From: Escherichia coli
GTDB lineage: Bacteria > Pseudomonadota > Gammaproteobacteria > Enterobacterales > Enterobacteriaceae
Strand: one strand, 5' to 3'
DNA: 17,383 bases
Assembly (NCBI RefSeq): GCF_003334255.1
Contig: NZ_QOWU01000075.1
Part shown: piece by piece, positions 78 through 275 of the stretch
Layout: the number at the start of each line of letters is the position of its first letter
Position numbering within the stretch: position 1 is the first letter of the stretch
Notes under the pieces: model-generated
The model's database searches: none
Told to the model about the DNA's origin: nothing
What the model saw: only the letters and a program-made list of their open reading frames with translations
Translations under genes and position numbers: made by a program

Positions 78-78
78 C

Positions 79-192
79 AGTGAAACGACTGCATTTCAGG
101 AACGCTATGATTTTAATATCGATGAATGGCGGGCAAAATTCAGGCAGTTATGTTTAGAGTATTTTGGCGATAGTCGTACACAGTTCACTTAA
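79..192 (+). pseudogene. 3' remnant (37 codons plus stop) of a plus-strand gene truncated by the IS1 insertion; identity unknown, convergent neighbour of nuoN
   Basis: Open frame begins immediately after the IS1 end and runs to TAA at 190..192 (SETTAFQERYDFNIDEWRAKFRQLCLEYFGDSRTQFT). No start codon or ribosome-binding site, as expected for a gene whose 5' part is displaced by the IS. Identity not recognisable from 37 residues. Confidence 0.45.
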
Positions 193-225
193 CGCTCTGC
201 GTCTATCTACTATCCCTTCTTTTTC

Positions 226-251
226 AGAAAAACCGCCGAGCATGTCGGCGG
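226..251 (-). terminator. Rho-independent terminator of the nuo operon
   Basis: GC-rich 7-bp stem (233..239 ccgccga pairs with 245..251 tcggcgg) with 5-nt loop. On the minus-strand transcript it is followed by a U-run (complement of agaaaaa at 226..232). Lies 25-50 bp downstream of the nuoN stop. Confidence 0.7.
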
Positions 252-275
252 CTTTCTGACTTACAAAGTAACAGA

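Follow-up and report, generated by a model that had tools for sequence, protein, structure and literature searches.

The DNA analysed here (the window) is a 17,383-nucleotide stretch of Escherichia coli sequence that opens inside one end of the insertion sequence IS1, continues with the 3' end of a gene convergent with nuoN, an intergenic hairpin and nuoN itself, and closes inside a second IS1 end. The coordinates of these features are collected in Table 1.

Table 1. Features at the two ends of the window, with the basis of each assignment
Feature	Position	Strand	Basis or remark
IS1 right end (IRR terminus), last 77 bases including the insB 3' end	1..77	+	contig opens within the element
CAGTGAAAC, one copy of the 9-bp target-site duplication	78..86	+	same 9 bases directly before the IS1 left end in contigs L002-L004
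yfbP 3' remnant, codons 246-282 (37 codons), with stop TAA at 190-192	79..192	+	identity to K-12 YfbP (WP_000767280.1)
GC-rich intergenic hairpin, flanked by the stop codons of convergent yfbP and nuoN	224..259		fold; A run before, T run after on the nuoN strand
nuoN, intact, convergent with the remnant	276..1733	-	485-aa ORF; same relative position as annotated K-12 nuoN
Second IS1 right end	17307..17383	-	exact reverse complement of 1-77

Window 1-77 agrees with the final 77 bases of the 768-bp IS1 annotated in strain LH13-b, with 0 mismatches. This reference copy is of the IS1B family, and its 9-bp duplication was seen directly on both flanks. The insB stop codon (TAA) lies at window 60-62, and the element terminates at base 77 with ...CATTACC (in a longer form, ...GGAGTCATTACC), an IS1 inverted-repeat end (...AAGTTGGAGTCATTACC). 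The IS1 share at this left junction amounts to 77 bases only, not the whole ~768-bp insA/insB element. Since both ends of the window carry the same 77 IS1 bases in inverse orientation, the window probably corresponds to a whole draft-assembly contig, whose start within IS1 reflects a repeat that the assembler failed to resolve; the 77-base ends most likely represent the k-mer overlap of a de Bruijn assembly with k=77. The IS1 ends have other lengths elsewhere: on the related NCBI contig L002 the two IS1 ends measure 128 and 116 bases, with no difference from IS1, and on the Logan contigs ~26 bases. On a metagenome contig (L008), the same IS1 end overlaps a gene fragment matching PF03400 (DDE_Tnp_IS1).

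An original prediction, made from the letters of this DNA, proposed that IS1 had cut off the 5' portion of a gene that converges on nuoN, leaving a 37-codon 3' remnant that ends at TAA 190..192, and assigned the convergent neighbour of nuoN in K-12 to the yfb cluster. All of these points were borne out. The neighbour in K-12 is yfbP, a gene of 282 codons annotated as "tetratricopeptide repeat protein YfbP", which in MG1655 is convergent with nuoN and lies downstream of yfbK-yfbL-yfbM-yfbN-yfbO. The translation of window 79-189, SETTAFQERYDFNIDEWRAKFRQLCLEYFGDSRTQFT, is YfbP residues 246-282 at 100% identity, so the peptide comparison that the prediction had proposed returned the C-terminus of an enterobacterial protein, and the remnant equals the last 37 codons of yfbP, with the break falling within codons 245-248. 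At the DNA level, the remnant is 100% identical to many yfbP-carrying genomes.

The prediction had also described an open frame without a start codon, running from the first base after IS1. Its length of 37 codons was correct, but the frame begins at base 79, the second base past IS1 (codon 245 has its third position at base 78), and it remains open back into IS1, where a TTG at 64-66, the only in-frame start, would give a 42-aa ORF. No Shine-Dalgarno-like sequence was seen ahead of this TTG on inspection of the letters, and the 42-aa junction ORF was not on record in an exact look-up in the gene-position index. The open frame alone is weak evidence, because ~17% of random frames, (61/64)^37, are expected to stay open over 37 codons by chance. 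What identifies the remnant as real is its 100% identity to the yfbP 3' end, together with its surroundings, rather than the open frame itself. The window contains these 37 codons and not a full-length 282-codon frame with a start of its own, which makes the frame a gene fragment; lacking both a promoter and a start of its own, this downstream fragment is almost certainly untranslated.

The hairpin between the two convergent stops folds with -23.8 kcal/mol (z = -4.09), and none of 200 shuffled sequences was equally stable. On the minus strand, that of nuoN, it is followed by TTTTTCTG. A consensus promoter and terminator scan of window 1-600 returned no site and did not flag the hairpin, probably because extension of the stem consumes the T run, and an Rfam search of window 1-400 gave sub-threshold chance matches on the hairpin only, with no family at threshold. 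From its sequence, the hairpin is a probable bidirectional intrinsic terminator that the insertion left intact. Further into the nuo genes, on the minus strand at window 10401-10443, Rfam detected the nuoG RNA motif RF01748 (50.3 bits; gathering score, 33), a cis-regulatory element already known from within the nuo operon.

The distribution of yfbP among complete E. coli genomes is patchy. Window 78-300 was matched over at least 80% of its length in 985 of 5,426 genomes, and the annotation beneath the matches reads "yfbP: tetratricopeptide repeat protein YfbP", adjoining nuoN. With absence defined as less than 80% coverage of the same interval, the 3' end of yfbP is missing in 4,441 of the 5,426 genomes (~82%). 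In genomes without yfbP, such as BL21(DE3), partial matches start only at around window 228-241, which places the edge of the variable yfbK-P island at the hairpin, the probable nuoN terminator. The yfbP gene is accessory and dispensable. An NCBIfam search of YfbP, YfbO and YfbN yielded no family above cut-off, a PADLOC search of YfbK, YfbL, YfbM, YfbN, YfbO and YfbP yielded no match to a defence system, and a literature search on yfbP retrieved no functional study.

A 9-bp target duplication is the usual outcome of IS1 transposition. A simple IS1 insertion with such a duplication predicts that the 5' half of yfbP ends with ...TCCAGTGAAAC and then enters the left end of IS1, and the predicted product is a 254-aa fusion of YfbP 1-248 with VMLPTY, ending ...SSETVMLPTY, six codons into IS1. 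This exact 254-aa protein is on record on five contigs of public E. coli assemblies, from NCBI assembly GCA_965136505.1 (contig CBCRYS010000169.1), Logan ERR271233 (the same contig, in 19 samples) and Logan ERR1948968, and its deposited entries, CAM3388723.1 and CUK21155.1, both carry the label Escherichia coli. The orientation control, a fusion built with the right end of IS1 in place of the left, was not on record.

The DNA around this fusion shows the same arrangement. Contigs L002-L004 carry yfbP codons 1-248, ending with ...ATGTC CAGTGAAAC, directly followed by GGTGATGCTGCC; across the junction they read ...ATAATGTC CAGTGAAAC and then GGTGATGCTGCCAACTTACTG, and the reciprocal junction as a whole (yfbP 5' part, 9-bp repeat and IS1 left end) is ATGTCCAGTGAAACGGTGATGCTGCC. 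The nine bases, which occupy 1843-1851 in L002 and are also found in L003 and L004, occur as a single copy at this site in K-12. The expected 9-bp duplication was thus found, with its two copies of CAGTGAAAC coming from different assemblies. When L002 129-1851 was joined to window 87-17306, with one copy of the repeat removed, the product was K-12 sequence with 0 mismatches over the 9,937 comparable bases, and the rebuilt yfbP was identical to the K-12 gene. Because this rebuild is exact, with one 9-bp repeat on each side, the yfbP junction reflects simple transposition and not deletion. The original prediction had suggested a look at the far side of the IS1 copy for the 5' part of the gene and a flanking 9-bp repeat; the yfbP 5' half, the IS1 left end and the same repeat were all found, but only in other assemblies.

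We weighed the possibility that the junction is an assembly artefact, in which an IS1 k-mer was chimerically joined to an intact yfbP. Both ends of the window are exactly 77 bases of IS1, which resembles an assembler k-mer overlap, and the left IS1-yfbP junction was present in none of the 5,426 complete E. coli genomes. However, de Bruijn contigs that reach a real repeat junction normally end with such an overlap into the repeat, here of 77 bases, and independent assemblies with other k (128-base and ~26-base IS1 ends) hold the exact complementary junction, with the correct 9-bp repeat and IS1 end. We regard an artefact as extremely improbable. In a further scan with a degenerate pattern that covered both junctions and the intact site, neither the window junction nor the reciprocal junction was present among 100,044 species-representative genomes. 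The sole match was a single uninterrupted yfbP; it lies on an E. coli-like contig assigned to a Bacillota metagenome-assembled genome. This contig (L011, JAEWTL010000023.1, 2,776 bp), binned as 'Bacillota bacterium', shows 99.8% identity to the K-12 yfbM/N-yfbP-nuoN region and is probably a bin contamination.

Taken together, it is very likely that a simple IS1 insertion with a 9-bp duplication split yfbP in two. In this model, the 768-bp IS1 would have transposed into the intact yfbP of a K-12-like E. coli, at a point within codons 245-248, and nine bases of the target (CAGTGAAAC) would have been duplicated. The upstream fragment, which would lie outside the window, would retain the promoter, the start codon and codons 1-248, followed by six IS1 codons, to encode the 254-aa product; the downstream fragment would be the 37 codons at window 79-192, with neither promoter nor start. 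The convergent nuoN and the intergenic hairpin are untouched. The reciprocal contigs are short-read contigs of other assemblies, from which we infer that the genome of the window carries the reciprocal junction as well and that the two yfbP junctions flank a single copy of IS1.

IS1 also promotes adjacent deletions. Such a deletion, or recombination between IS1 copies, could have taken away the 5' portion of yfbP, and perhaps further parts of the yfbK-P island, leaving the remnant without a partner. The window holds nothing upstream of IS1, as this scenario would have it, and in related assemblies another IS1, in direct orientation, lies within yfbN at a distance of 1.7 kb upstream; recombination between the two copies would delete yfbN'-yfbO-yfbP'. 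Against this, the reciprocal yfbP::IS1 junction with the matching 9-bp repeat is kept in about 20 or more public samples, which makes simple insertion the original event and means that the lineage bearing this allele still has the 5' fragment. We consider a deletion very unlikely.

With the simple insertion as the preferred reading, the consequence for the protein can be outlined. The upstream fragment retains 248 of the 282 residues (~88% of yfbP) and loses 34, and all Pfam-detectable TPR motifs of YfbP, at residues 96-167, lie upstream of the insertion. The disrupted yfbP is a putative pseudogene, and the loss of its function is deduced rather than observed, since 248 of 282 residues and every recognisable TPR motif survive in the upstream fragment.

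The right end of the window presents the second IS1. This copy resides between alaA and lrhA: in the K-12 record, the match to the window stops at position 1476296, ~437 bp upstream of the lrhA start codon at 1476733. Its candidate target duplication is GCAAAGTTA (window 17298-17306), and no junction-spanning ORF of at least 25 aa was found at this end. A 17.2-kb yfbP'-nuo-lrhA block is consequently bracketed by two inverted IS1 copies, and the same insertion into yfbP may have been followed by an inversion of this segment, through recombination between the inverted IS1 copies or through intramolecular duplicative inversion by IS1. The contig is closed on either side by one and the same inward-facing IS1 end, so that the two copies are inverted repeats, which fits an inversion, and by reasoning an inversion between the two copies would keep all four junction sequences the same, so the junction data are compatible with it. 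An inversion needs an additional event, has no positive evidence in its favour, and would involve a nuo-lrhA block for whose inversion no selection is known; we consider it improbable. After such an inversion, the yfbP 5' fragment would sit beside the lrhA-side IS1, more than 17 kb from the remnant.

Between the two IS1 ends, the window is K-12 sequence: all 17,229 bases of window 78-17306 are identical to MG1655 in a single piece, and a separate comparison from the yfbP side gave 0 mismatches over 8,223 bases. Natural strains carrying yfbP differ over the same span by 17 SNPs (720632) and 19 SNPs (A27). The density of IS1 had at first pointed to a Shigella origin; this reading was rejected on the identity to MG1655, on the 17-19 SNPs by which natural yfbP-bearing relatives differ, and on the Escherichia coli label of the deposited fusion proteins. 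Despite the identity to MG1655, no complete K-12 derivative in RefSeq has the IS1 junctions of the window, and the source may be a K-12 laboratory strain or a natural near-K-12 lineage. Strain 720632 has an IS600 (IS3 family) between yfbO and yfbP (L005 15371-17415), and the yfbP annotated there is longer by 24 bases (873 nt).

The related contigs contain a further IS1 junction inside yfbN, at approximately codon 97 of 238, where the next nine bases are GGCATCTCC (L002 1-137; L003; L004; L008 10292-10431). In these assemblies, the yfbN and yfbP copies of IS1 are in direct orientation and bracket the 1.7-kb yfbN'-yfbO-yfbP' segment. On the metagenome contig L008, which shows 2 SNPs relative to the window over 8.6 kb, the yfbN::IS1 junction is accompanied by an uninterrupted yfbP; the yfbN insertion is therefore older or more widespread, and the yfbP insertion more recent. 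Three independent IS1 insertions account most simply for the junctions in yfbN, in yfbP and upstream of lrhA, because each junction lies at its chromosomal position in K-12 and the yfbP junctions have their own 9-bp repeat. A bolder reading, to which we give little credence, is that IS1 has expanded in a natural near-K-12 lineage, at three sites within 20 kb, with the inverted pair around nuo-lrhA forming an invertible or regulatory module that alters lrhA expression and thereby motility, and the yfbP insertion as a passenger. The lrhA-proximal copy is potentially the selected one within such an IS1 burst.

The anatomy of this locus falls within known IS1 behaviour, and yfbP::IS1 is a textbook insertional disruption by IS1. 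It resembles the IS1 in lrhA of E. coli F022 (PMC8092126), where a 768-bp IS1 with a 9-bp duplication likewise leaves a 5' fragment that reads into the IS and a 3' fragment without a start. The target differs: in contrast to lrhA in F022, yfbP is an uncharacterised accessory gene, interrupted near its 3' end with 34 residues lost, and no phenotype is expected. Compared with the yfbP of K-12 MG1655, codons 246-282, the stop, the downstream hairpin and the convergent nuoN are all the same in the window, but codons 1-245 are replaced by the IS1 end. The direct IS1 pair at 1.7 kb and the inverted pair at 17.2 kb are reminiscent of IS1-bounded composites (Tn9-like direct pairs, and inverted pairs); unlike in those composites, there is no sign that either bracketed block moves as a unit.

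The biological weight of yfbP::IS1 is very small. For annotation, the 37-codon frame should be recorded as a yfbP fragment or pseudogene and not as a gene, and the 254-aa 'Protein YfbP' entries in the databases are IS1 read-through fusions. In combination, yfbP::IS1, yfbN::IS1 and the IS1 in front of lrhA could be used to mark the lineage.

The lrhA gene and its upstream region constitute a recurrent target of insertion sequences (L012 16742-17439; L013 16360-17522; L007 3102-3869; corresponding to window ~16300-17100). DCM188-6 carries an IS1 inside lrhA, and ER1821R carries an IS3 inside lrhA, with the same extra length in ST18, S17-1 and ER2683. LH13-b has an IS1 upstream of lrhA at a site equivalent to window ~17092-17100; its distance to the gene is ~207 bp shorter than that of the copy in the window. 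An IS1 insertion in lrhA derepresses flagellar genes, and a 9-bp duplication has been reported for the IS1 in lrhA of E. coli F022 (PMC8092126). The repeated IS insertions at lrhA agree with a selection for loss of this gene that has been described in the literature (PMC8092126). The IS1 upstream of lrhA in the window might change lrhA expression and hence motility. Among the complete genomes, one plasmid-labelled record also matches part of the nuo-lrhA region.
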